Shown one piece after another: positions 13,218 to 63,922 of a stretch of DNA of 64,000 bases. Below the pieces are notes generated by a model. The model had not been told where the DNA came from. It saw nothing but the letters and a program-made list of their open reading frames with translations, and did not search any database. The translations under genes and the position numbers were made by a program. Source of the DNA: Deltaproteobacteria bacterium (GTDB taxonomy: Bacteria; Desulfobacterota; Syntrophia; Syntrophales; UBA2210); contig JAFDAI010000006.1 of NCBI GenBank assembly GCA_019313905.1, positions 9,264 to 73,263 on the forward strand, written 5' to 3'. Every line of letters begins with the position of its first letter. The stretch's first letter is position 1.

Positions 13218-15855
<2,638 letters not shown>

Positions 15856-15983
15856 TATCGAACTCTCAACAATAGATTTCAGGAAGATATTAGCTATACA
15901 CTGGTAAAATGTCAAACCAAAAGCTGTAAAATAACACTTGTCTTTTTATTATAGATATAATAGAAAATTCGCTATTGATGATT

Positions 15984-16466
15984 ATGAAAATAGGCGTTAT
16001 TTCCGACACTCATCTTAATGTTTCCGACGACAGACTTGAAAAGATCGTAGAGGATTATTTTCGTGATGTTGACTTAATCCTGCATGCGGGAGATATAATT
16101 GAGTTGGATGTCCTCAATGTTTTCAAAGGCATAGACGTGTACGCCGTTAGTGGAAATATGGATCGCGATTCGGTTAGGGAAGTGTTTCCCGAAAAACAGA
16201 TATTGGAGATCGAAGGGCGAAAAATAGGCTTGATACATGGCTGGGGGTCTCCATTTGGTTTGGAAGATAAGATAATGCAGGAATTTGAGAATGTTGAGTG
16301 CATAGTGTATGGTCATACACACCGGGTCATGAACGAGACGAGAAACGGTGTGCTGCTCTTCAATCCCGGATCACCTACAGATCGGAAATTTACCAGACAC
16401 AATTCAGTAGGGATACTGGATGTCGGAGAAGGGATAACCGGAAGGATTATATATCTGGAAGATTAG
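15984..16466 (+). CDS. YfcE/MJ0936-family metallophosphoesterase
   Basis: MKIGVISDTHL...HAGD...GNMD...GHTH motif series. Confidence 0.8.
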   Translation: MKIGVISDTHLNVSDDRLEKIVEDYFRDVDLILHAGDIIELDVLNVFKGIDVYAVSGNMDRDSVREVFPEKQILEIEGRKIGLIHGWGSPFGLEDKIMQEFENVECIVYGHTHRVMNETRNGVLLFNPGSPTDRKFTRHNSVGILDVGEGITGRIIYLED

Positions 16467-16648
16467 GGTCTGTCATGAAATAAGTGTTGCAGTTAGGCGC
16501 TCAGATTTAGGTTAGGTTTAGTCGATACGAGTGAGTAAAACCGTAAGAATAGCAGGGCTCTTTTGAGGATTTTGCGATTGAGAATCGGCTAAAAATGGCC
16601 TGAAGATGAGATGCATAAATGTGATACTTATTTCATGACAGACCCTTA
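16463..16648. mobile_element. MITE-like non-autonomous element with terminal inverted repeats and TTA flanks
   Basis: GGGTCTGTCATGAAATAAGT at 16466-16485 is the perfect reverse complement of 16626-16645 (21 bp if the adjacent A/T is included). 140-nt non-coding interior. TTA lies on both flanks (16463-16465, 16646-16648). Confidence 0.6.
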
Positions 16649-16665
16649 GGACAGGATATCGATTA

Positions 16666-17148
16666 ATGGATAACATAATGGCTCCCGGGAGGATGGAGTA
16701 TATTAAGGGTATAAAGCCGGATGGGTGTATCTTTTGCCGAGGATCTGCCAGGGAAGAAGATCTTGTATTGTACGAGGAGAAATCCTGTTATGTCATGATG
16801 AATAAATATCCCTATTCTTCCGGACATCTGCTGGTAATTCCTTTCAGGCATATATGTGCTATAGAAGAAACGAACGCCGAAGAAAAGCTGGAAATGATGG
16901 AACTCACCGACATGTGCGTGAGAATCCTGAAAAAAGCGCTTGATCCGGAAGGTTTCAATATAGGGATGAATCTCGGAAAGGTAGCAGGTGCCGGTGTTGA
17001 TGATCATCTGCATATACACATTGTTCCCAGGTGGCTGGGTGACACCAATTTCGCTACGGTACTGGGAGAAGTCAGGGTCATTCCAGAGGATATTGCAAAG
17101 ACCTGGAATACTTTATTACCTTATTTCATAGGAAGAGAGGAGACGTAG
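16666..17148 (+). CDS. HIT-family nucleotide hydrolase/transferase
   Basis: Histidine-triad DDHLHIHIVPR, plus the upstream MNKYPYSSGHLLV motif. Confidence 0.85.
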   Translation: MDNIMAPGRMEYIKGIKPDGCIFCRGSAREEDLVLYEEKSCYVMMNKYPYSSGHLLVIPFRHICAIEETNAEEKLEMMELTDMCVRILKKALDPEGFNIGMNLGKVAGAGVDDHLHIHIVPRWLGDTNFATVLGEVRVIPEDIAKTWNTLLPYFIGREET

Positions 17149-51089: not shown

Positions 51090-51686
51090 GTGAAATACTC
51101 TGAATTTATAAAAAAAGAAAGTTTTGAACTGGACGACCTGATTGCCTTTGCTTACGGACGACTGGTTGCTGATCCGCCTGAGGATTTCGATGCACGACTA
51201 CCCGCCCCCCCCTTCCTTATGGCGGATCGCATCCTTTCGATAAAGAATGACGGAAGGAAGGGATCTATTATTGCCGAGCAGGATATAAGGATAGACGCTT
51301 GGTATTTTCAGTGCCATATGCCGGGAGATCCTGTGCAGCCGGGTTGTCTTTGCGTGGATGCGATCTGGCAATTGCTCGGTTTTTACTGTAGCTGGAGTGG
51401 AGGATTGGGTGGCGGCAGAGCGCTCGGTTGCGAAGAAATCGTCTTCAACGGACAGATACGGCCATATAATCAAAAGGTTCGTTATGAAATTGACGTAAGG
51501 CGTTTTTCTCATCTTAAAGCTTCAGGTTCAAGTATTGTCATCGGAAATGGCAGAGTATTCGTGGATGACGAATTGATAATGACTATTAAAAATGCCCGCA
51601 CTGGAATCTTCAAGGGAATTGTCTATCCGGATTATCCGAAAATGTCACCCAATTCCAGGGGAGGAATTATAAAGAGAGATATATGA
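51090..51686 (+). CDS. fabA: FabA-type 3-hydroxyacyl-ACP dehydratase/isomerase
   Basis: LPAPPFLMADRI...WYFQCHMPGDPVQPGCLCVDAIWQLLGF...GRALG matches the FabA core (CHFxGDPVMPGCL). GTG start is the first plausible start after the fabH-like stop. Confidence 0.75.
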   Translation: MKYSEFIKKESFELDDLIAFAYGRLVADPPEDFDARLPAPPFLMADRILSIKNDGRKGSIIAEQDIRIDAWYFQCHMPGDPVQPGCLCVDAIWQLLGFYCSWSGGLGGGRALGCEEIVFNGQIRPYNQKVRYEIDVRRFSHLKASGSSIVIGNGRVFVDDELIMTIKNARTGIFKGIVYPDYPKMSPNSRGGIIKRDI

Positions 51687-52441
51687 ATAGGTCAAAATTA
51701 GAAATTAAAGATTCAGAATTGAAACCCGTTGCAATTGTAACCGGCGGCGGAACCGGAATAGGCGCGGCCTGTTGCCTGGCCCTTGCCGACGAAGGTTTCA
51801 GGGTGGGTATTCATTATCGGAAAAGTGAAGATCAGGCAAAGGACGTTCTCTCTCGAATAGACGATGGATTTCTTCTGAAAGCCGATCTTGCCGATGTGGA
51901 TGAAGTGGAAGAAATGTCAAAATCCATCAAGAGCGCGGCTGGTCGTGTGGACGTATTGGTCAACAATGCCGGGATATCTATTAACAGTGATATCAACACG
52001 ATGAAGGTCGGCGAGTTTGACGCACAGCGGGCGATGCTTCGCGGCACCTGGTATCTGACCAAGCGGATATTGCGCCTTTTCATGCTGCGCGGCGGCAGTG
52101 GAAGAATTATCAATATCTCCAGTGTAGTAGGGCATACCGGTAATGGCGGCCAGATTCCATACACTATGGAAAAAGCAGCACTTGATGCCTTTACCAAATC
52201 TCTGGCCAAAGAATTATGGGGACGAAATATTCTCATCAATTCCGTGGCGCCCGGGTTTATCGATACGTCCATGACGGAAATTCTTCCTGATGACGTTCGG
52301 AACAAGATTCTTGAGAACATTCCCCTGGGGCGGATGGGCCAGCCTGAAGAAGTGGCCGATGTCGTGACCTTTCTTGCCAGCCGGGGCAGCTATATTACCG
52401 GAACGGTTATTCATGTTAACGGGGGGCTGTATGGGGGTTGA
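51683..52441 (+). CDS. fabG: 3-oxoacyl-ACP reductase (SDR)
   Basis: TGGGTGIGAA, NNAG, and Y-x3-K (YTMEK). 4-nt overlap with fabA. Confidence 0.85.
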   Translation: MNRSKLEIKDSELKPVAIVTGGGTGIGAACCLALADEGFRVGIHYRKSEDQAKDVLSRIDDGFLLKADLADVDEVEEMSKSIKSAAGRVDVLVNNAGISINSDINTMKVGEFDAQRAMLRGTWYLTKRILRLFMLRGGSGRIINISSVVGHTGNGGQIPYTMEKAALDAFTKSLAKELWGRNILINSVAPGFIDTSMTEILPDDVRNKILENIPLGRMGQPEEVADVVTFLASRGSYITGTVIHVNGGLYGG

Positions 52442-52910
52442 TGCAAACATGGTGCAAAACGTACTTTCTCTGGTTCCTCAACAGCATCCGTTCCGTTTTA
52501 TTGATGACATACTGGAGATGGATGAGGATCATATCGTTGGAACATACCGCTTCCGGGACGACGAATACTTCTATAAGGGACATTTTCCCGGACAGCCGGT
52601 CACGCCCGGGGTTATTTTGATTGAAACGATGGCTCAAACCGGCGTTGTTGCCTTTGGCATATATCTGCTCATGCGGCAGGGTTTATTGTCCGGGCAGATT
52701 AAACAACTGGTTACCCTGTTTGCCATGGTTGATGGTTGTGAGTTCAACGGCATCGTCAATCCGGGAGAAAAGGTTATCATTAGAGGCGAAAAAGTCTATC
52801 TTCGCAGAGGAAACCTGAAAACGAAGGTCAGTATAGAAAGAGAAAACGGAGACATTGTCTGTTACGGAGTGCTTACCGGTAAAGGAGTTGAACTTAATGA
52901 AGAAAAATAG
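52431..52910 (+). CDS. FabZ-like hotdog 3-hydroxyacyl-ACP dehydratase
   Basis: PQQHPFRFIDDI...YFYKGHFPGQPVTPGVILIETMAQ is the FabZ His/Glu motif context. Start at 52431 or 52449. Confidence 0.75.
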   Translation: MGVDANMVQNVLSLVPQQHPFRFIDDILEMDEDHIVGTYRFRDDEYFYKGHFPGQPVTPGVILIETMAQTGVVAFGIYLLMRQGLLSGQIKQLVTLFAMVDGCEFNGIVNPGEKVIIRGEKVYLRRGNLKTKVSIERENGDIVCYGVLTGKGVELNEEK

Positions 52911-54174
52911 AGTAGTTATAACAGGAATGGGCGTTGTAGCGCCGAATGGACACGGGTTGAACGATTTCGAACAGGCCCTGCGCGATGGGCGGTCGGGAAT
53001 TAGTTTTTTCCCCAGACTGAAAGAACTCAAATTTGGATGCCAGATCGGGGGGATGCCGCATGGCTTTGACGAAGTTCGCAAGAGCTATTTCGATCATGAA
53101 AAGCTTCTCTCTCTGAACGATAATATCGGATATATATCCGTATCTGCTGTTGACGCCTGGCGTGACGCGGGATTTGACTGGTCCGACGATAACCATGAGG
53201 TAGACTGGGACACAGGCGCCATTCTCGGTTGCGGTATCGGCGGCATGGATACGATTGCCGAGAGGGTTGTTCCCATGGTTAACCAGGGCAAGACAAGACG
53301 CATGGGGAGCAGGATTGTTGAACAGGTCATGAACAGTGGTACGAGTGCCCGCGTAGGCGGTTTGTTGGGGTTGGGCAACCAGGTAACCTCCAACTCCGCT
53401 GCCTGCAGTACCGGAACAGAAGCAATTGTTAATGCGATGTTAAGAGTGCAATCGGGACTGGCAAAACGGATGCTGGCAGGTGGATCTGAAGGAGCATCGC
53501 CCTACATATGGGCGGGATTCGATTCAATGCGTGTCATTCCCCGCAAGTTCAATGACAATCCGGAGCAGGGTTCCCGTCCGATGAGCGCTTCCGCAAACGG
53601 ATTTGTTCCCGGTGCGGGAGGGGCAGTCCTGGTCCTTGAAGATCTGGAAACAGCGCTTGAACGGGGGGCTATGATTTACGCGGAAATCCTCGGAGGAAAC
53701 GTCAATAGCGGCGGGCAGAGGAACGGTGGTTCCATGACAGCGCCAAACCCTGAAGGCGTTCAGCGCTGTATCAGAAGTGCCATGGCTGATGCGGGTGTTA
53801 CCTCGCGTGAAATAGATGCCATTAATGGACACCTGACGGCGACATTTGCGGATCCGTCTGAAGTAAACAACTGGTCACTGGCTCTCGACAGGGGGCCCGG
53901 GGATTTTCCGTACATAAACTCGACAAAATCAATGATCGGTCACTGTCTCGGTGCGGCGGGAGCCATCGAAGCTGTTGCCGTTGCCCTTCAGCTATATAAA
54001 GGATTTATGCACCCGTCTGTCAATTGTGAAGATGTACATCCGGAGATTGAAGCGTTCGCGGAAAACATTCCTCATGAAGTTATGGAGTACCCGGAATTAA
54101 AAATCATGGCGAAGGCATCTTTCGGTTTTGGAGACGTGAACAGTTGCCTTATTTTCAAAAAGTGGGAAACATAA
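52897..54174 (+). CDS. elongating beta-ketoacyl-ACP synthase (KAS I/II type)
   Basis: RVVITGMGVVAPNG start, active-site Cys in NSAACSTG, His residues in INGHLTAT and KSMIGHCLGAAG. AAAGGAG RBS. Confidence 0.85.
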   Translation: MKKNRVVITGMGVVAPNGHGLNDFEQALRDGRSGISFFPRLKELKFGCQIGGMPHGFDEVRKSYFDHEKLLSLNDNIGYISVSAVDAWRDAGFDWSDDNHEVDWDTGAILGCGIGGMDTIAERVVPMVNQGKTRRMGSRIVEQVMNSGTSARVGGLLGLGNQVTSNSAACSTGTEAIVNAMLRVQSGLAKRMLAGGSEGASPYIWAGFDSMRVIPRKFNDNPEQGSRPMSASANGFVPGAGGAVLVLEDLETALERGAMIYAEILGGNVNSGGQRNGGSMTAPNPEGVQRCIRSAMADAGVTSREIDAINGHLTATFADPSEVNNWSLALDRGPGDFPYINSTKSMIGHCLGAAGAIEAVAVALQLYKGFMHPSVNCEDVHPEIEAFAENIPHEVMEYPELKIMAKASFGFGDVNSCLIFKKWET

Positions 54175-54227
54175 ATTCAATTTTGAGTTTCAAGTTAAAA
54201 GACATAAAAATTACAAGGAGAGAAATA

Positions 54228-54476
54228 ATGGAAGAAAAAGAAATTTTGCAAGAGATGGTAAATATCCTCAAACCGTACATTAAGGACCCGGCTTTGCTGG
54301 ATAATGCGACAAAAGAGACACATATCCTCGATGACCTCAAGGTCAATTCAGCGCGCCTTGTGGATATCATTATCAAATGTGAAGATGTATTTGACATTGA
54401 AATCGACGATGACGATGCCGACAAGATCAGAACCATCGGAGACGCTGTTGAAATTATTCAGAATAAATTAAGTTAG
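54228..54476 (+). CDS. dedicated acyl carrier protein
   Basis: 82-aa acidic four-helix-type protein. Putative phosphopantetheine Ser in DDLKVNSARLVD (non-canonical versus DSL). AAGGAG RBS. Confidence 0.7.
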   Translation: MEEKEILQEMVNILKPYIKDPALLDNATKETHILDDLKVNSARLVDIIIKCEDVFDIEIDDDDADKIRTIGDAVEIIQNKLS

Positions 54477-54506
54477 TCTTCAGATGGATATGAATCAGGG
54501 TAATTT

Positions 54507-55325
54507 ATGATGAAACGGACGGCAAAATTTTTCCTGTACCTGCAGCTTCTTATTGGGCGCCTGGGGGTTTTCCTTTTAGGCCCCCTTATATTTATCGCGA
54601 TAAAGCTTATAGGGTACAGGGTGAGAGATCTGAGAAAAATAAGAGGGAATGTCCTGAACCTGTTTGAAAAACACAATGGTCCCTGGGTGATATGTCCAAA
54701 TCACCTGACCATGATAGATTCAGCAGTGCTGGCCTATGCCATGGCGCCGCTGCATCGCTATATGCTTAATTACAGGTTACTTCCCTGGAATCTTCCGGAA
54801 AGAGCGAATTTCCAGAGCAATATTTTTCTGGCTGTTCTCTGTTATTTGGCGAAGTGCCTACCGATCAGCCGCGGTGGAAATCGAAAAAAAATGAAAGCCA
54901 CCATGGACAAATGCGCCTATCTCTTGAATCAGAAAGAAAGCCTGCTCATTTTTCCGGAAGGGGGACGTAGCCGGACAAGCCGTGTGGATACGGAAAACTT
55001 TTCCTATGGAGTCGGGCGTTTGATAAACAACAACCCTGATTGCAATGTCATGTGTATCTATCTGCGCGGTGATGGACAGGATAAATACAGCAATATTCCC
55101 CGTTTTGGTGAACGGTTCACTATGCGCATAGAAGCATTTCAACCTCGTACGGAAAGTACAGGATTGAAAGGACAGAGAGAATGCGCGAAGCAAATCGTAG
55201 AACAACTGGCCCAGATGGAGAAAGATTATTTTGGTAGGCAACGATATTGTAGATCTGACCGATTCCCGGACAAAAGGGAAAAGCCGGGATATGCGGTTCA
55301 TGAACAGAGTGTTCACACCGGCTGA
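54507..55325 (+). CDS. lysophospholipid/glycerol-phosphate acyltransferase (PlsC/LPLAT family)
   Basis: HX4D motif NHLTMID and FPEGGRS motif. The 3' end overlaps the next gene by 95 nt. Confidence 0.75.
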   Translation: MMKRTAKFFLYLQLLIGRLGVFLLGPLIFIAIKLIGYRVRDLRKIRGNVLNLFEKHNGPWVICPNHLTMIDSAVLAYAMAPLHRYMLNYRLLPWNLPERANFQSNIFLAVLCYLAKCLPISRGGNRKKMKATMDKCAYLLNQKESLLIFPEGGRSRTSRVDTENFSYGVGRLINNNPDCNVMCIYLRGDGQDKYSNIPRFGERFTMRIEAFQPRTESTGLKGQRECAKQIVEQLAQMEKDYFGRQRYCRSDRFPDKREKPGYAVHEQSVHTG

Positions 55326-55866
55326 ACAACTGGATATCCTGGAAAGCAGCAAACCGGATATTGTTCTCTGGAGCCTGTGGGCGGCAAAAGAAACGGGGTA
55401 CAAGGCAATAAGCAAGCTGCATCCCACCGTTTCTTCCGCACCCGGGTATTATGAAGTAAAATTGTTCTCAGCAGACGGGTCTTTGCCTGAAACGGGGGTT
55501 GTCTATACGCCTTGCGGACAGGTATCAGTCTGTTTTTTCATAAGCAGTGACCATATTCATTGTATCGGCACAACTCCGGATAGAGATACGGATTCGATCA
55601 TGTGGGATGTCCGTAAGATATACCGGCGCCGGTTTTCCCCCGATTATGAATCGGATCTTGTCCGGAATATGGCCGGGGAAAAGATAGCGCGCTATCTGAA
55701 AAAAGATTCGAAAGCCATAGAGATCATTCGTCCAAAGGGGCATCGCGGTCTCGGCCCCCCGGTAATCTATGCCGGAAAGAAAAGAACCGCAATCGACATC
55801 AGCATGAGCCACGACGGCCGGTTTGTGGCCTATGCGCTTCAGGACACAAACAATACTATTCATTAA
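55231..55866 (+). CDS. 4'-phosphopantetheinyl transferase
   Basis: GNDIVDL start and WAAKETGYKA (W..KEA..K) motif. TTG start preceded by GGAGAAAG. Confidence 0.6.
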   Translation: MVGNDIVDLTDSRTKGKSRDMRFMNRVFTPAEQLDILESSKPDIVLWSLWAAKETGYKAISKLHPTVSSAPGYYEVKLFSADGSLPETGVVYTPCGQVSVCFFISSDHIHCIGTTPDRDTDSIMWDVRKIYRRRFSPDYESDLVRNMAGEKIARYLKKDSKAIEIIRPKGHRGLGPPVIYAGKKRTAIDISMSHDGRFVAYALQDTNNTIH

Positions 55867-56056: not shown

Positions 56057-57223
56057 ATGATAATATCACGGTATCTAACAGAACCGATCCATCAGGATCT
56101 CAAAGAAAAGATGGTTTTCATTTCCGGGCCTCGGCAGGTAGGTAAAACAACTCTAGCGAAGACCTTTCTGGAAAAGAAAGAGTATCAGTATTATAACTGG
56201 GATAACCGGGCGGATCGAAAGAAGATATTAGCTGCACAGTGGCCGGCGGTTGAAAGCGTCATAGTATTTGATGAGCTTCATAAATATAAAAACTGGAAGG
56301 GCTGGATCAAGGGCGAATATGATTCTCATGGCGACCGAATCCAGTTTATCATAACAGGTAGCGCCCGATTGGATATTTACCGCAAGGGTGGAGATTCACT
56401 ACAGGGACGTTATCATGCTCATCGTTTACACGGTTTTTCAGTTGGTGAACTGCAAAAAACGAAGGCAACCCTTGTCCCCGGAAAAGAGATTGAGTTTCCC
56501 GAAAAGATTGAACAGGATCTGTTGCCTGCATTATTCCAGTTCGGTTCCTTTCCCGAGCCCTTCCTGAAGCAAAATAAGCGCGGTTTGAGAAGATGGCAGC
56601 GAGAACGCCTGGATCGTTTTTTCAGAGAAGATGTTCGTGATCTTGAAAACGTTCGGGATCTCTCGTCAATGGAACTCCTGGCGTCCATGCTCGAAGATCG
56701 TATAGGCAGTCTTCTTTCCCTCCAGTCATTGCGGGAAGATCTTGAAGTCAGCCATCGGGCGGTATCTCACTGGATGGCCATACTTGAACATTTGTATCAC
56801 TGTTTTAGTGTGACACCATTTACTCACAAATCCATACGATCGCTTAAAAAAGCTGCAAAGGTATATTTGTGGGACTGGTCTGTGGTGCCGGATAAGGGGG
56901 CCCGCTTTGAAAATCTCGTGGCATGTCACCTGTTAAAAATGAAACACGCCCTTGAAGATCAGGAGGGCTACAGAATTGGCCTTCACTACCTGAGAGATGC
57001 CGGAAAAAGAGAGGTTGATTTCCTGGTTACCGTTGAGAACAAGCCCTGGTTTGCCGTAGAATGCAAGACAGCAAGCCGGACGCCGAACCCCGCGCTCAAC
57101 TACTATGGCGAAAGACTGAAAATCCCCTACCTGTATCAGATAACACTTGAAGAGGGCGATGATACATTTAACGGCAGAGTCAGAGTGATGCCGGCCGGCA
57201 AGTTCCTGGGAGCGCTTCCATGA
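56057..57223 (+). CDS. AAA+ ATPase with DUF4143 (PD-(D/E)xK-like) C-terminal domain
   Basis: Walker A GPRQVGKTT, Walker B VIVFDELH, and C-terminal ..REVDFLV...AVECK nuclease-fold-like motif. Confidence 0.75.
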   Translation: MIISRYLTEPIHQDLKEKMVFISGPRQVGKTTLAKTFLEKKEYQYYNWDNRADRKKILAAQWPAVESVIVFDELHKYKNWKGWIKGEYDSHGDRIQFIITGSARLDIYRKGGDSLQGRYHAHRLHGFSVGELQKTKATLVPGKEIEFPEKIEQDLLPALFQFGSFPEPFLKQNKRGLRRWQRERLDRFFREDVRDLENVRDLSSMELLASMLEDRIGSLLSLQSLREDLEVSHRAVSHWMAILEHLYHCFSVTPFTHKSIRSLKKAAKVYLWDWSVVPDKGARFENLVACHLLKMKHALEDQEGYRIGLHYLRDAGKREVDFLVTVENKPWFAVECKTASRTPNPALNYYGERLKIPYLYQITLEEGDDTFNGRVRVMPAGKFLGALP

Positions 57224-57317: not shown

Positions 57318-58838
57318 GTGAATAAAAAGAATAATAATTCGAATAATAATCATATTGAACTTTCCGGATTGTCGAATCACCTTTGGGAATCGGCAAGCAT
57401 ATTACGCGGTCCTATCGATGCGGCGGATTTCAAGACATATATTTTCCCGTTTTTATTCTTTAAGAGAATTTCAGATGTTTATGACGAAGAGATGAAAGCT
57501 GCTTTGGATGAATCCGATGGTGACCTTGAATACGCACAGTTTCCAGAAAACCATCGTTTCCAGATCCCGAATGACTGCCACTGGGAGGACATTCGAGAAA
57601 AAGGCGAAAATATCGGCTATGCGCTTCAGGAGGCCATGCGCAGTATAGAAAAGGCGAATCCCGACACTTTGCATAGTATATTTGGAGACGCTCAGTGGAC
57701 AAACAAAGACCGACTATCAGACGCACTCTTGAAAGACCTGATCGAACATTTTTCGAAATTGAGCCTTGGGAACCAAAACTGTAAAGCCGATATCCTCGGT
57801 CAATCCTATGAATATCTCATCAAAAAGTTTGCTGATCTGACGAATAAAAAGGCCGGTGAGTTCTATACGCCTCGTTCCGTTGTTGCGTTGATGGTGAGAA
57901 TACTGGCGCCGAGAGAAGGCGGAACAATCTATGATCCTGCCTGTGGAACCGGTGGAATGCTTTTAGAAGCACTGCATTATGTCAAAGAGCATGGTGGTAG
58001 TGAGAATTTGATGCTGGGAAAATTATATGGACAGGAAAAAAACCTGACAACGTCAGCCATTGCAAGAATGAATCTGTTTCTTCATGGGGCGGAAGATTTT
58101 CGCATTGAACGAGGAGATACCCTCCGCCTGCCTGCGTTCTACTCAGGCGACAGCTTGGCTACTTTTGATTGCGTCATTGCAAATCCACCTTTTTCACTCC
58201 AGAAGTGGGGTGATGAAATTTGGCAAAATGATCCGTATGGGCGAAATTTTGTAGGCTTGCCACCTGCTAAGACCGGTGATTTCGCCTGGGTTCAGCACAT
58301 GATCAAATCCATGGCACCCAAAACAGGTCGCATGGCTGTTGTTCTACCACACGGCGTACTTTTCCGCATGGCCAAAGAGGGCAAAATTCGGCGCAAACTC
58401 ATTGAAATTGATATTCTTGAGGCAGTCATTGGATTAGGACCAAATCTTTTTTACGGCACCGGCTTGGCGGCCTGTATATTGGTCTTTCGAGCAACGAAAC
58501 AACAGTCGCACCGGGAAAGGGTGCTCTTCATCGACGCATCAAAAGAATTCAAGACAGGTAGAGCACAGAACGAGCTTTTACCGGAACATATAGAGAATAT
58601 ACATGGGTGGTATGCTGATTTTCAAGATGTCGAAGGTGCTTGTCGGGTAATCACGCTCGATGAAGTCAGGGAGAATGACTACAACCTGAACATCCCACGC
58701 TACGTGGAACCGGTTATCGAAGAAGAAACCATGACCTTGGATCAGGCTATCGCAAATTTTAAAGAATCGATTGAGGCAGCATATAAAGCGGAAGATCGAC
58801 TTAAAGATTTATTGAAGCGTGAGGGTCTAATGACATGA
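57318..58838 (+). CDS. hsdM: type I restriction-modification DNA methyltransferase subunit M, copy 1
   Basis: 506 aa. HsdM_N-type start (LW..A..LRG), EFYTPRSVV, DPACGTGGML (motif I) and NPPF (motif IV). Confidence 0.9.
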   Translation: MNKKNNNSNNNHIELSGLSNHLWESASILRGPIDAADFKTYIFPFLFFKRISDVYDEEMKAALDESDGDLEYAQFPENHRFQIPNDCHWEDIREKGENIGYALQEAMRSIEKANPDTLHSIFGDAQWTNKDRLSDALLKDLIEHFSKLSLGNQNCKADILGQSYEYLIKKFADLTNKKAGEFYTPRSVVALMVRILAPREGGTIYDPACGTGGMLLEALHYVKEHGGSENLMLGKLYGQEKNLTTSAIARMNLFLHGAEDFRIERGDTLRLPAFYSGDSLATFDCVIANPPFSLQKWGDEIWQNDPYGRNFVGLPPAKTGDFAWVQHMIKSMAPKTGRMAVVLPHGVLFRMAKEGKIRRKLIEIDILEAVIGLGPNLFYGTGLAACILVFRATKQQSHRERVLFIDASKEFKTGRAQNELLPEHIENIHGWYADFQDVEGACRVITLDEVRENDYNLNIPRYVEPVIEEETMTLDQAIANFKESIEAAYKAEDRLKDLLKREGLMT

Positions 58839-61096
58839 AAGATGCACAAAAACCAGATCACATAAGTCTGAACACACTCATTAATAGACTGAAGGAAGGC
58901 CGATTCGTTATTCCGGATTTTCAGAGAGAGTTCGAATGGCGGCCTTGGGATATCAAAGATTTAATGCGATCAATCTTTCTCGATTATTACATTGGCAGCA
59001 TGTTGTTATGGAAAGGTAAAAGAGAGAATTTCAATGCCTTATCCTGCGAAATTCTCTATGGATTCGACAACAAAACCGGGCAGCATCCTTGGAACTACAA
59101 TGGTGGCAAACCGGAGTACATCGTGCTTGATGGACAACAGCGACTCACGGCTCTATATTATGCATTCATTGCGCCAGATGTACCACTGCCCAATAGGGCT
59201 AATCGTGCGGTTTATTTTATACATGTCGATAAGTTCATGGACGAACACTACGATGAAGCCTTTCAATATGATTGGCTTTCGAGGCGCTTTAATAAAATCT
59301 TGAATGATCGTAAGGTGCAGTATGATGAACATATATTTCCTCTCTCAGTGGTAGGCGCCGGGGGATGGGATTTGCCTAATTGGGTGCAAGGTTATGAGCA
59401 ATACTGGGGAAAAGCGGCGTCAGATGCCCAAGGTCGTGGCAATGCAGCAGAAGCAGAGAGTGCAAAACGACATGCTCAGAATGCGAAAGCATTCGGCGAG
59501 CACCTGAAAGGTATCACTGAAGAATATCAGATTGCATATATAGAGCTCAATAAAGACATAGCGGTCGATAAGGTTTGTGACATTTTTACCCAGATCAACA
59601 GTCGTGGTATTAGGCTTGATGTTTTCGACCTCGTCAACGCCCTGATTAAGCCAAAGGGACTTCAGCTCAAACACATGTGGAGAAAAGCGGCGCCCCGCTT
59701 AGAGTTTGTTGATACGGAAAAGATGAATGTCTATATTTTGCAGGTAATGTCAATCTTGCGACAGTCTTACTGCTCTCCAAAATATCTCTATTATTTGCTT
59801 CCCGGTCAGGAAAAACAGGTAAGAGACCCCGATGGCACAAAAAGAAAAGAAGTCCTCATACCGGACATCGTTGATTTCGAGAAGCGATGGGATGAGGCCG
59901 TAGTTGCACTTGAGAATGCGATCAGGCTCTTACGACATCCACAAGAGTTTGGAGCTGTTTCGTCACAATACCTGCCTTATGTTTCCGTTCTTCCCGTTTT
60001 TGCAGCCTTGCAGGCGCAAAGCACAACCCTGCCCGCCAACAAGCGGCTTGATGCCCAGCGCAAAATCCGTTATTGGTACTGGGCATCGGTGTTCATAAAC
60101 CGTTATTCAGGCTCTGTTGAGTCGACAAGTGCCCGTGATTTCCTTGATGTAAAGGCATGGTTAGAAGATGATGCTGCCGAACCTGTGCTATTACAGGAGT
60201 TCAAGATCCATTTCAAGAATCTGGAGTTACGCAAAGAAAACAAGAAAGGCACTTCTGTTTACAACGGCATATTTAACTTGCTTGTTCTTCAGGGCGCTCG
60301 GGACTGGATGACTGGCAATGTTCCGCAATATGATGATCTTGATGACCACCATATTGTGCCCGCCTCTTGGGGGGCAAGGAATCTGGGAAACAACTCTGTT
60401 CACACAATCCTTAACAGAACCCCGTTGAGTGCTGATACCAATAGGAATATTATTAACGATAGATTGCCTAATGAATATCTACCAGAACTGATCTCAAACA
60501 ATGGGGAGAAGGCTGTGCGCGCTATCCTCGAGTCGCACTTTATATCGCAAGTGGCGCAGGAAATCTTAATGCGCGATCCGTTTACTCCTGATGATTTTGA
60601 GGCATTTATTTCTGAGCGCCAGCGCACTATTCAAGATGCCATAGAGAATCTACTAATCAAAGAGCGTCTGGATCTTTCGCCTCAGCTCCGTGAGTTGGAT
60701 GAGAACATTGAACAAACAGAACTTGGCTTACGCCAGATAATTGTCAAAACCTTTGGCGAAGATGCCTCACAACTTCCTCAACACATTCAACAAAAAGTCG
60801 GTGAAAGAATTCAAGGTGCAGCTAAGAAAAATCCCGCTATGGATACGGAACGGTATCAAACCCTTCCCGGCATGATTGAGTTCTTTGACCTGCGGGACCT
60901 TCAGGACGCAATTACATCCAAGACATATTGGGCACAATTCGAATCAAGATTCTCTAATAAAGAAATGCTTATGGCAAAGTTCAGTCAACTAGTAGGGCTC
61001 AGGAATGTCATTCGCCATAGCCGTACAGTCGACGATATTACCAGGAAAGAGGGCGAGGCAGCGATTCTTTGGTTTAAACAGGTCTTGGGGAAATGA
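58835..61096 (+). CDS. DUF262 (ParB/GmrS-like) + His-Me finger (DUF1524-like) + C-terminal Swt1-like HEPN fusion protein
   Basis: IPDFQREFEW and DGQQRLT (aa 99-105, nt 59129-59149). DDHHIVP...N...N (His pair at nt 60347-60352). LRNVIRHS Rx4H HEPN motif (nt 61001-61018). ATGA overlaps at both ends. Confidence 0.7.
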   Translation: MKDAQKPDHISLNTLINRLKEGRFVIPDFQREFEWRPWDIKDLMRSIFLDYYIGSMLLWKGKRENFNALSCEILYGFDNKTGQHPWNYNGGKPEYIVLDGQQRLTALYYAFIAPDVPLPNRANRAVYFIHVDKFMDEHYDEAFQYDWLSRRFNKILNDRKVQYDEHIFPLSVVGAGGWDLPNWVQGYEQYWGKAASDAQGRGNAAEAESAKRHAQNAKAFGEHLKGITEEYQIAYIELNKDIAVDKVCDIFTQINSRGIRLDVFDLVNALIKPKGLQLKHMWRKAAPRLEFVDTEKMNVYILQVMSILRQSYCSPKYLYYLLPGQEKQVRDPDGTKRKEVLIPDIVDFEKRWDEAVVALENAIRLLRHPQEFGAVSSQYLPYVSVLPVFAALQAQSTTLPANKRLDAQRKIRYWYWASVFINRYSGSVESTSARDFLDVKAWLEDDAAEPVLLQEFKIHFKNLELRKENKKGTSVYNGIFNLLVLQGARDWMTGNVPQYDDLDDHHIVPASWGARNLGNNSVHTILNRTPLSADTNRNIINDRLPNEYLPELISNNGEKAVRAILESHFISQVAQEILMRDPFTPDDFEAFISERQRTIQDAIENLLIKERLDLSPQLRELDENIEQTELGLRQIIVKTFGEDASQLPQHIQQKVGERIQGAAKKNPAMDTERYQTLPGMIEFFDLRDLQDAITSKTYWAQFESRFSNKEMLMAKFSQLVGLRNVIRHSRTVDDITRKEGEAAILWFKQVLGK

Positions 61097-62613
61097 ATAA
61101 ACGTATTGCACAAGCTGAACTTGAATCATACCTCTGGGGTGCGGCAACCCTGCTGCGCGGCCACATCGATGCCGGGGACTACAAACAATTTATTTTCCCC
61201 CTGCTTTTCTACAAGAGGTTGTGCGACGTCTATGATGGGGAAATTACTCAATCATTGGAAGAATCAAGTGGCGATAAAGAATATGCCAGGCTCCCGGAGC
61301 AGCATCGGTTTCAAATCCCGATGGAAGCGCACTGGAAAGTCATTCGCACCAAGGTCAAAAATATCGGCAAGGCCATTCAGGATGCTCTCCGCTCAATCGA
61401 AAAGACAAATCCCGATACCCTCTATAGCGTATTCGGGGATGCACAATGGACCAACAAGGAACGACTGCCGGACAGCATGCTTAGAGAGCTCATCGAACAT
61501 TTCAGTTCCAAAACACTATCCATAGAAAATTTGCCTGAGGATGAACTCGGACTTGGATATGAATTTCTTATAAAGAAGTTTGCCGACGACTCCGGACATA
61601 CGGCGGCTGAATTCTATACTAACCGGACCCTGGTCCATCTTATGACCGAAATGCTTGAACCAAGCCCGGGTGAATCAATTTACGATCCCACATGCGGTTC
61701 TGCCGGGATGCTGCTCTCCGCTGTGTCGCATTTAAAACGGCAAAACAATGAATGGCGCAATCTCAAACTTTACGGCCAGGAACGCAACCTGTTGACCTCG
61801 GCGATAGGTCGTATGAATCTCTTCCTGCACGGTATTGTCGACTTTAAGATCGTCAGGGGAGATACACTTGCGCACCCGGCATATGTGCAGGGCGATCGGC
61901 TCATGCAATTCGACGTTGTGCTGGCCAATCCACCATATTCCATCAAACAGTGGGATCGTAAAGCCTGGTCATCTGATCCGTGGGGGCGCAATATTTACGG
62001 TACGCCACCACAGGGCCGTGCTGACTATGCCTTCTGGCAGCATATTATCGCCAGCATGAAACCTAAAACCGGCCGCTGCGCAATCCTCTTCCCCCATGGT
62101 GTCCTTTTCCGCAACGAAGAACTTGGTATGCGTGAGAAGCTCATCGCTCATGACTTGATAGAGTGTGTACTCGGGCTGGGACCGAATCTATTTTATAACT
62201 CGCCAATGGAGGCCTGTGTCGTTATCTGCCGCATGGCCAAACCACGAGAAAGGCGGAACAAAGTTCTCTTCATAAATGCGGTAAACGAAGTCACCCGAGA
62301 GCGGGCGCAGAGTTTTCTGACTGACGAGCATATTTCAAAGATCGTGAATGCATATCGTGATTTTGAAGACTCAAACGGATTTGCTCGTGTAGCTGATGTG
62401 AGCGAAGTTCGGGAAAAAGGAAATAATTTGAGTATCCCACTCTACGTGCGAATGAACAATGGAAATCATGTGCTCGGCATTGCAGAACACGCGCCTCCAT
62501 ACGGACTCACGCCGCTTACTCAAGCAATAGATGAGTGGCAAAAAAGCTCACAAGAATTACATGAATCTCTAAATGAATTATTTGAAACTCTGGAGGGCAA
62601 TTACCGTGGATAA
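61093..62613 (+). CDS. hsdM: type I RM methyltransferase subunit M, copy 2 (divergent paralog)
   Basis: Also 506 aa and colinear with copy 1 (roughly half or more of N-terminal residues identical by eye). NPPY motif IV. Atypical EFYTNRTLV and DPTCGSAGML. Confidence 0.85.
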   Translation: MNKRIAQAELESYLWGAATLLRGHIDAGDYKQFIFPLLFYKRLCDVYDGEITQSLEESSGDKEYARLPEQHRFQIPMEAHWKVIRTKVKNIGKAIQDALRSIEKTNPDTLYSVFGDAQWTNKERLPDSMLRELIEHFSSKTLSIENLPEDELGLGYEFLIKKFADDSGHTAAEFYTNRTLVHLMTEMLEPSPGESIYDPTCGSAGMLLSAVSHLKRQNNEWRNLKLYGQERNLLTSAIGRMNLFLHGIVDFKIVRGDTLAHPAYVQGDRLMQFDVVLANPPYSIKQWDRKAWSSDPWGRNIYGTPPQGRADYAFWQHIIASMKPKTGRCAILFPHGVLFRNEELGMREKLIAHDLIECVLGLGPNLFYNSPMEACVVICRMAKPRERRNKVLFINAVNEVTRERAQSFLTDEHISKIVNAYRDFEDSNGFARVADVSEVREKGNNLSIPLYVRMNNGNHVLGIAEHAPPYGLTPLTQAIDEWQKSSQELHESLNELFETLEGNYRG

Positions 62614-63922
62614 AGCCACACCCTTCTCCCAAGAGAAGCTCAATGAAATATTTAAAATATTGCCTAAGAACCCCGAAAGAGTAATTTCTCGGGAAAGCAG
62701 AAATTTAGAATTTAAAGAATCCTTCGGCTGGAAAAGTCTGCCAAAGTATCTCAAGACATGTGCTTCATTTGCTAATACAAAAGGAGGATACATTGTATAT
62801 GGCATAGCAAATCGGCCGCATAAGCTCATTGGTCTTACAGGGGCCAATTTGAAGTTGTTCGAAGGCATTGATCCTGCGAAATTGGCAATGTATTTTAATG
62901 AACATTTTTCACCCGAGATGATTTGGGATATCCAAGAGTATGAACTCAGTGGAAGAAGCTATGGTCTTCTATATGTACACGAATCGCAGGATAAGCCGGT
63001 TGTCTGCACCAAGAATGCAGAACAAGAGCTAAAAGAAGGGGATATTTACTATCGGTATCGTGGGCGCTCCCAAAGAATTAAATATCCAGAATTGCGAAGT
63101 ATTTTGGATTATAAGAGAGAGAGCGAACAGCGGCTATGGATGCGACACCTTACACAGATTGCCAAGATTGGCGTTAAGGACACTGGAATTTTTGATCTTC
63201 AAACAGGGCAAGTTACCGGAACAGAAGGAGCCTTTCTTATTGATGAATCTTTGCTGAGTCAGTTGTCTTTTATAAAGGAAGGAGAGTTTTTCGAGACTAA
63301 GGGCAGGCCAACGCTTAAACTCATTGGAAGCATAAAATCAATTAAAGGTGGTCTGCCAATAATTGGACAAAAACAGATAATCAGAAGTAAAGGAATACGA
63401 ATCGGTGATATAGTCTTGGCATTCCTAAATAACCTGAAGATTGATGATCCAACCGAGTATATCAAACAAATCTGTTTCGAAAGTACAGGGTTTCTACCTG
63501 TATATTATTTTATGCATAGAAGTGGTTTTAATAAAGACAAAACGATTGGCTTAATCGAAAAAGTTATATCCCGTTCTCAGTCAAAAAATAAATTGCTTGA
63601 GCGATTACAGGAACAAAAAACTCAATATTTAAAACTATCTTTATCAAATACGCCTGCCGCCGTAAAAAGACGGACATATGTCGAACAAGCCAAAAAGAAA
63701 GGGATTCCTTTAGATCTTGGCAACCAGGAGATCAATTATTGCCTGAAAGGGCTGCGCACGCTCACTCCCGAAGAAGTAAAAAGACTCTCTGATTACATCT
63801 GTGACACATTGAGAACGTGGTTCAATAAGCACTATGCATCTGGCGATGGAGTGTTGGCAGACAATCTCAGACGGACAATATGCTGGGTCGATGAAGCGCT
63901 GTACATGGAGGGTCTGGAATGA
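62606..63922 (+). CDS. Schlafen/AlbA_2-domain putative nucleic-acid-binding protein
   Basis: ESRNLEFKESF...KTCASFANTKGGYIVYGI is the AlbA_2 signature. The C-terminal ~250 aa are unassigned. GTG at 62606 follows GGAGGG and overlaps the hsdM2 stop by 8 nt. Confidence 0.65.
   Translation: MDKATPFSQEKLNEIFKILPKNPERVISRESRNLEFKESFGWKSLPKYLKTCASFANTKGGYIVYGIANRPHKLIGLTGANLKLFEGIDPAKLAMYFNEHFSPEMIWDIQEYELSGRSYGLLYVHESQDKPVVCTKNAEQELKEGDIYYRYRGRSQRIKYPELRSILDYKRESEQRLWMRHLTQIAKIGVKDTGIFDLQTGQVTGTEGAFLIDESLLSQLSFIKEGEFFETKGRPTLKLIGSIKSIKGGLPIIGQKQIIRSKGIRIGDIVLAFLNNLKIDDPTEYIKQICFESTGFLPVYYFMHRSGFNKDKTIGLIEKVISRSQSKNKLLERLQEQKTQYLKLSLSNTPAAVKRRTYVEQAKKKGIPLDLGNQEINYCLKGLRTLTPEEVKRLSDYICDTLRTWFNKHYASGDGVLADNLRRTICWVDEALYMEGLE

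Follow-up and report, generated by a model that had tools for sequence, protein, structure and literature searches.

Type IV restriction enzymes of the single-chain GmrSD type, such as BrxU, Eco94GmrSD and EcoCTGmrSD, are built from a DUF262 domain with a DGQQR motif, a helical linker and a DUF1524 His-Me finger. A defence role has been shown experimentally for BrxU and its group HEC-05, for HEC-06 and for TgvAB, the BrxU-like HEC-05 and HEC-06 having been validated by Payne et al., who generalised the embedding of defence genes. GmrSD homologues most often have type I restriction-modification (RM) genes next to them (Machnicka 2015, PMC4619093, where RloF is also cited), and TgvAB is a validated GmrSD-like defence system located inside a type I operon on VPI-2 of Vibrio cholerae (PMC11411939). 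Here we analyse a 64,000-nucleotide (nt) stretch of the genome of a Deltaproteobacteria bacterium of the Syntrophales (GenBank assembly GCA_019313905.1, contig JAFDAI010000006.1, positions 9,264 to 73,263), hereafter the window. At 58835..61096 on the + strand it encodes a GmrSD-family protein with a C-terminal HEPN domain, here called T, whose gene lies between two type I methyltransferase genes.

The architecture of T has been listed before. Table 1 of the HEPN census of Anantharaman et al. (2013, PMC3710099) includes, among fusions of Swt1-like HEPN domains, the entry 'ParB (DUF262) with HNH (VNG7073), active', which agrees with T in the order of its three domains and in its HEPN family and is a single line of the table, without biochemistry or context analysis. 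A tblastn search identified a T homologue on both pNRC100 and pNRC200 of Halobacterium NRC-1. The pNRC100 homologue aligns to amino acids (aa) 334-751 of T, a stretch that takes in both the HNH and the HEPN motifs, with 24% identity (E=6e-21). This gene seems to be N-terminally split and may be VNG7073, its RefSeq locus tag being a new one; VNG7073 was not found in the supplement of the census (PMC3710099).

T shares with BrxU and the other single-chain GmrSD enzymes the DUF262 domain, the helical linker and the His-Me finger. However, sequence similarity between T and BrxU is detectable only over the first ~100 aa of DUF262, and T adds a HEPN domain of ~140 aa that BrxU and GmrSD lack. Like TgvAB and RloF of Campylobacter, T is encoded by a GmrSD-family gene nested in a type I RM operon, probably as complementary protection (PMC11411939, PMC4619093). 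TgvAB consists of two proteins, neither with a HEPN domain, whose genes lie between different hsd genes, whereas T is one protein encoded between tandem hsdM paralogs.

PrrC, an ATP-binding cassette (ABC) ATPase with a HEPN domain, is embedded in a type Ic RM locus (PMC3710099). The PrrC/RloC anticodon nucleases and T have in common a C-terminal HEPN RNase (predicted in T) that is regulated by an NTPase and encoded within a type I RM locus. In PrrC/RloC the regulator is an ABC/Rad50-like ATPase and there is no DNase domain, whereas the regulator in T is DUF262; no N-terminal ABC/Rad50-like ATPase was found in T, which shares with them the HEPN domain and the RM embedding only. PrrC also depends on its RM partner, whereas T frequently stands alone. 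In the validated defence system PD-T4-2, a DUF262 protein is paired with a RiboL-PSP-HEPN protein (PMC10952713). PD-T4-2, SspE and DndI resemble T in pairing DUF262 with a HEPN or HNH effector (PMC10952713). However, the domains of PD-T4-2 are on separate genes and its HEPN family differs from that of T, in which PADLOC scanning gave no match to PD-T4-2 models at E<=0.01; SspE and DndI sense phosphorothioates and lack the HEPN domain present in T.

A preliminary description of this locus, made from sequence alone, had called both the domain combination and its context unusual. Neither view can be kept, given the 2013 listing of the fusion (PMC3710099) and its occurrence in relatives of 62-78% identity in many phyla, and given that type I RM genes are the usual company of GmrSD genes (PMC4619093) and that TgvAB is likewise embedded (PMC11411939).

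Results

Domain architecture of T

The T gene starts with ATG and encodes 753 aa. Full-length homologues are 742-756 aa long, and numerous homologues are more than 70% identical. An AlphaFold2 (AF2) model built on a 30-sequence alignment had a mean predicted local distance difference test score (pLDDT) of 87 and a predicted TM-score (pTM) of 0.70. When this full model was searched against the PDB with Foldseek, four significant matches were obtained: three BrxU chains and DndI. BrxU (7p9k) was the best fold match (E=1.1e-12, 658 columns aligned), followed by DndI (9jfl), a phosphorothioate sensor, with E=4e-5. The TM-scores of T against solved GmrSD-type structures were low, at 0.3-0.4, as is to be expected when several domains are joined at flexible angles. 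An NCBIfam scan of T gave no match.

The N-terminal DUF262/GmrSD_N domain, of the ParB/Srx-like NTPase type, occupies aa 13-271 (58871..59647, + strand, as are all features of T) and matches PF03235 with E=1.3e-32. BrxU 7p9k was also the sole PDB sequence match of T (E=4e-11, aa 12-108), and the BrxU-like HEC-05 models of PADLOC match T. The segment IPDFQREFEW is found at aa 26-35 (nt 58910-58939) and DGQQRLT at aa 99-105, and the GmrSD_N motifs are present as Q30-R31, D99-G-Q-Q-R103 and F251xxxN255. Q30-R31, D99-R103 and F251/N255 are invariant in the family alignment and in every representative that retains the N-terminus. This domain is followed by a mostly alpha-helical linker at aa 272-439 (59648..60151), as judged from AF2 secondary structure. 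The 658 columns aligned to BrxU by Foldseek include this linker.

A divergent DUF1524/HNH His-Me finger domain is assigned to aa 440-600 (60152..60634) from a family profile and from Pfam matches of relatives. The family profile of this segment matches the HNH domain of SpCas9 (6o56) with E=2e-4. In the alignment, DDHHIVP of T (aa 503-509, nt 60341-60361) falls on DVDHIVP, N527 on the Asn of IDNKVL, and N536 on the Asn of DKNRG; N527 opens NRTP (aa 527-530) and N536 lies in TNRN (aa 535-538, nt 60437-60448). H506, N527 and N536 of T presumably correspond to H840, N854 and N863 of SpCas9. PF07510 (GmrSD_C) was matched by 5 of the 24 aligned relatives (best 3e-6), and HNH_4 also by 5 of 24. In the AF2 model a strand at 502-506 ends in H505-H506, N527 precedes a strand at 528-532, and N536 lies in a helix at 533-540. 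Based on the family-profile alignment, the Pfam matches of relatives and this predicted strand/strand/helix placement, we consider the predicted His-Me finger real though divergent, as had been proposed from the motifs alone; the BrxU fold match points the same way. T therefore has both hallmarks of the GmrSD family, an N-terminal DUF262 domain with QR, DGQQR and FxxxN, and a predicted C-terminal DUF1524 His-Me finger.

The C-terminal Swt1-like HEPN domain

A flexible hinge at aa 609-615, of which aa 611-614 are of low confidence in the AF2 model, precedes the predicted Swt1-like HEPN domain at aa 616-752 (60680..61090), which is assigned from sequence profiles and invariant residues. The fold expected of a HEPN domain is an up-down bundle of four helices, with an insert between helices 2 and 3. 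The model of this domain (pLDDT 90) has four long helices (616-640, 649-665, 709-727 and 734-752), the second and third being separated by short ones. HEPN domains are defined by an Rx4-6H motif with a polar residue after the Arg, which ends helix 3 and runs into a loop, and by an upstream Ex3[KR] motif (PMC3710099). Each of these features was found in T: an Rx4H motif with its polar residue, an Ex3R motif, and placement of the former at the end of the penultimate core helix. E629-L-G-L-R633 (Ex3R) lies in the first long helix (616-640). R723-N-V-I-R-H728 lies within FSQLVGLRNVIRHSRTVDD (aa 716-734); R723-N724 end helix 709-727, and H728 opens the loop preceding the last helix.

The bare Rx4-6H pattern alone is no evidence for a HEPN domain, because four copies were seen in T against about three expected from its composition. 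However, R723..H728 is the only conserved copy, and it is invariant in 26 of the 26 HEPN-bearing representatives of clusters at 50% identity, the polar residue after R723 (N724) being kept in 24 of them. Down to about 28% identity no change is seen in E629, R633, R723 or H728, and N724 is almost always kept.

When 24 aligned family C-termini were scanned singly, 11 matched PF18731 (HEPN_Swt1). Two of these exceeded the gathering score of 27.5 bits, with 42.7 and 28.2 bits, and both matches span the region from the Ex3R helix to the Rx4H motif. Fewer of the 24 tails matched other HEPN families (RiboL-PSP, Abi_2, MAE_28990, SAV2148). An hhalign comparison of the close clade of T (120 tails) with a distant clade containing Pfam-positive members gave 99.8% and E=6.6e-30 over 129 columns, with Ex3R and Rx4H both in register. 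PADLOC PDC-M34B matches aa 627-735 of T (E=5e-8). When the C-terminal alignment was used for a profile search of the PDB, only noise came back. A homologue search seeded with a Pfam-positive HEPN tail, seeking independent Swt1-HEPN proteins, found nothing, and one with the C-terminus of T alone returned fragments of T's own family only.

The Swt1-like tail with an Rx4H motif that had been read from the sequence of T is thus borne out by the PF18731 matches, the clade alignment and the invariant residues. The ORF and every motif quoted in the preliminary description were located where it had placed them, and its view of a single polypeptide combining DUF262, a His-Me/HNH finger and a Swt1-like HEPN domain stands, through PF03235, the 6o56 profile and the transitive assignment to PF18731. 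As judged from conserved residues, T carries the catalytic signatures of all three domains intact.

The T family is widespread and its C-terminal module is exchangeable

A search of 1.84 billion cluster representatives identified 5198 T homologues at E<=1e-3 and 559 at E<=1e-30. Taxonomic spread was read from contigs of one genome per species. Relatives with 62-78% identity to T were present in more than 15 phyla, including Bacteroidota, Desulfobacterota, Acidobacteriota, Planctomycetota, Chloroflexota, Verrucomicrobiota, Proteobacteria, Cyanobacteria and Gemmatimonadota, and in archaea (Methanoculleus and one metagenome-assembled genome of Methanobacteriota). This scattering of similar proteins over so many phyla and archaea indicates horizontal transfer of T. 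A phage origin of T was considered and rejected, as phage records hold only distant relatives that lack the HEPN domain.

The DUF262-linker-HNH core was found in three forms: tail-less (about 560-608 aa), followed by the HEPN tail, or followed by another, unrelated tail (~170-180 aa). The C-terminal module of the family is therefore exchangeable. The alternative tail, which has no aligned Rx4H motif, is carried by representatives P0253, P0257, P0267, P0315 and P0353, among others, and further relatives of the core have N-terminal extensions of 170-550 aa.

Among the 26 HEPN-bearing representatives, the HNH His is replaced in six (P0245, P0250, P0264, P0277, P0289 and P0310), and N536 is replaced in the same six. 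DGQQR and Rx4H are kept in all 26, these HNH-dead proteins included. Because the HNH His has been lost in 6 of 26 while Rx4H has never been lost, this pattern of conservation speaks for the HEPN domain as a working effector and not a passenger. The gene for one of the HNH-dead proteins, P0277, stands alone amid housekeeping genes.

T is inserted into a two-hsdM type I operon

The gene for T is flanked by hsdM1 (57318..58838, +; N6_Mtase 1e-101 and HsdM_N) and hsdM2 (61093..62613, +; N6_Mtase 4e-85 and HsdM_N; PADLOC MTase_I PDLC03039, 964 bits), which confirms that it lies between two methyltransferase genes, both hsdM-like. HsdM1 and HsdM2 are 54% identical. The stop codon of hsdM1 overlaps the start codon of T by 4 nt (ATGA), and the stop codon of T overlaps the start of hsdM2 in the same way; T is thus translationally coupled to both neighbours.

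In syntenic loci the order is hsdM1, T, hsdM2, zero to three variable genes, hsdS and hsdR, with the same 4-nt overlaps. A separate downstream hsdS (PF01420) was identified in six of these loci (L002, L003, L029-L031 and L042). Since syntenic loci carry both hsdS and hsdR downstream of hsdM2, those of T's own operon most probably lie beyond the end of the window. The arrangement hsdM1-T-hsdM2 recurs in genomes of Geobacteraceae, Verrucomicrobiota and Planctomycetaceae and on several metagenome contigs.

The direction of insertion was judged from a metagenome search with HsdM1, which yielded 49 loci with enough downstream sequence. In 46 of these, hsdM1 is followed by hsdM2 without T between them, the two mostly adjoining, and most continue with hsdS and hsdR; T lies between hsdM1 and hsdM2 in the remaining 3. 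Because 46 of 49 hsdM1 loci have hsdM2 next without T, T is cargo inserted precisely between the paralogs of a pre-existing two-hsdM type I operon and not a substitute for hsdS. The proposal that T sits where hsdS would be expected is therefore not supported, hsdS being found downstream in the syntenic loci. HsdM1 as a dedicated partner of T was rejected on the same count, and T probably complements the RM system rather than belonging to its methyltransferase/specificity machinery. A repeat scan around the insertion gave short chance-level matches only, and in a promoter and terminator scan the counts were within shuffle expectation.

The two-hsdM type I family is itself widespread. Its tandem paralogs diverged anciently, are ~50-54% identical and are followed by one hsdS and one hsdR (loci L087-L165). 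Orthologues of hsdM1 retain the NPPF and DPxCGTGG motifs, and both paralogs keep NPPF/NPPY and the S-adenosylmethionine-binding motif across orthologues. This hints at a heteromeric methyltransferase of the form M1·M2·S. No description of tandem hsdM paralogs was found in the literature searched, which held unrelated usages only.

One database protein, P0008 (1106 aa, on a JGI contig of 7793 nt), contains HsdM_N, N6_Mtase and a full-length T with 81% identity. HsdM and T may truly be fused in it, or else the ATGA junction was read through or wrongly assembled.

Genomic contexts of T homologues elsewhere

Context could be judged for 65 T-homologue loci; for 23 more the contig was too short. The M1-T(-M2) arrangement was seen in 14 loci, and in 20 others the homologue adjoins unrelated type I RM genes, so that type I RM genes lie near T in 34 of the 65. 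No homologue of the type I RM queries was detected in the remaining 31 within flanks of 5-10 kb on each side. T is thus often independent of type I RM, and about half of its homologues stand alone. In a crude neighbour-joining tree, embedded and stand-alone copies are intermixed, the embedded ones being spread over at least two groups.

Other genes around T

A second slot for variable cargo is the interval that separates hsdM2 from hsdS. In the window it holds a gene with a Schlafen/AlbA_2 domain (62573..63922, +; SLFN_AlbA_2 7.8e-20), between hsdM2 and the expected hsdS. Homologues with 62-63% identity occupy the same slot in three other loci (L097, L103 and L107). The listed start of this ORF overlaps the end of hsdM2 by 41 nt (62573-62613), compared with 4 nt elsewhere in the operon, and the true start may lie further downstream. 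The slot of L143, a 95%-identical relative, holds two genes of 477 aa and 728 aa (13305-16914) that by eye resemble SIR2 and HerA genes, and that of L002 holds a Hypoth_Ymh gene (13770-14591).

Directly upstream of hsdM1 is an ATPase gene with AAA_14 and DUF4143 domains (window 56057-57223). It matches the PADLOC candidate PDC-S01 (E=2e-53), and a 93%-identical copy is found upstream in L143. Upstream of these defence genes, at about 51683-55866, is a run of + strand ORFs that, judged from translations alone, resemble a lipid/polyketide-type cluster, with a reductase like the short-chain dehydrogenase/reductase FabG, a hotdog dehydratase, a ketoacyl synthase, an acyl carrier protein-like gene, an acyltransferase and a phosphopantetheinyl transferase-like gene.

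Discussion

The analysis shows the domain identities, the conservation of catalytic residues, the modularity of the tail and the genomic contexts of T. Taking these together, we favour, with somewhat better than even confidence, the view that T is a self-contained GmrSD-family defence enzyme with predicted DNase and RNase effectors. By analogy with BrxU, SspE and HEPN RNases we infer its biochemical activities, its trigger and a dimer-dependent activation of its HEPN domain as follows. DUF262 would bind and hydrolyse NTP and sense the trigger, for which modified DNA, or DNA that is foreign in some other way, is the likeliest candidate. The HNH finger would then be licensed to cut DNA by NTP-dependent changes in the conformation and the oligomeric state of T, and the same changes would pair two HEPN domains to form a composite Rx4H active site for RNA cleavage. 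This RNA cleavage would be a second effector arm, abortive or growth-arresting.

Several points weigh against this view. Direct Pfam scans (E<=10) gave no match either for T's own C-terminus or for its aa 440-600 segment. Because Foldseek of the isolated C-terminal model against the PDB and BFVD found nothing at E<0.6, support for the predicted HEPN fold comes from sequence profiles and the secondary structure of the model and not from matches to known structures. Modified DNA may be only a candidate target for the clade of T. Being translationally coupled with both hsdM genes, T may also be tied to the RM complex in its function. In the literature searched there was no paper with an experimental test of a GmrSD protein bearing a HEPN tail.

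It is possible, though rather unlikely, that the balance between the two effectors differs, the HEPN RNase being the principal effector in the T clade. T would then be a DUF262-gated DNA-sensing RNase with an auxiliary HNH finger, decayed in several lineages. If true, this would be a 'type IV restriction enzyme' that answers foreign or modified DNA by cutting RNA.

T could also be a guard of the kind represented by PrrC, kept inactive by the adjacent RM proteins, either HsdM1/HsdM2 or the entire type I complex, with its HEPN RNase freed once a phage anti-restriction protein disables RM, so that the embedding would be functional and not just positional. Both ATGA junctions, the recurrence of M1-T-M2 in other genomes and metagenome contigs, and the type I RM genes near T in about half of the informative loci are consistent with this, and PrrC in its type Ic locus is a precedent (PMC3710099). 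However, the other informative loci, 31 of the 65, have no detected type I RM query homologue in their flanks, nearly all M1-M2 operons do without T, embedded and stand-alone copies are intermixed in the tree, and the related GmrSD enzymes BrxU and HEC-06 act alone. We consider such a guard unlikely. In a weaker variant, the copies between hsdM1 and hsdM2 may also monitor the integrity of the two-HsdM methyltransferase in the fashion of PrrC.

About equally improbable is a non-catalytic HEPN domain that serves to form dimers or to bind nucleic acid, a role proposed for Swt1 of eukaryotes; T would in that case be a DNase of the GmrSD type whose tail is structural. The Swt1 family includes some HEPN domains that are regarded as inactive (PMC3710099), the fold searches found no match to an active HEPN RNase, and tail-less relatives work. 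However, the near-complete conservation of E629, R633, R723, N724 and H728 down to ~28% identity, and the persistence of Rx4H in lineages without the HNH His, argue for catalysis, and Anantharaman et al. classed the ParB and HNH fusions as 'active' (PMC3710099).

The suggestion that T is a specificity subunit like HsdS but diverged, or that it and HsdM1 form a novel methyltransferase in which it is obligatory, has in its favour only the position between two hsdM genes and the translational coupling, and it is effectively refuted, as is any role as an HsdS surrogate: T has no match to Pfam Methylase_S/target recognition domains (PF01420) at E<=0.1, the whole protein matches BrxU and DndI by fold, bona fide hsdS genes lie downstream in syntenic loci, M1-M2-S-R operons are normally without T, and T often has no methyltransferase nearby.

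T, read as a self-contained defence enzyme, is a fresh example of a census-level architecture that has been known since 2013 and is widespread. Because the literature already describes both this architecture and its link with type I RM, the value of T is incremental. The locus provides an intact candidate with all three predicted catalytic motifs, and the natural HNH-dead relatives are ready-made controls. If the prediction is true, a single polypeptide would couple the sensing of DNA to the cleavage of both DNA and RNA, linking type IV restriction with HEPN abortive defence.

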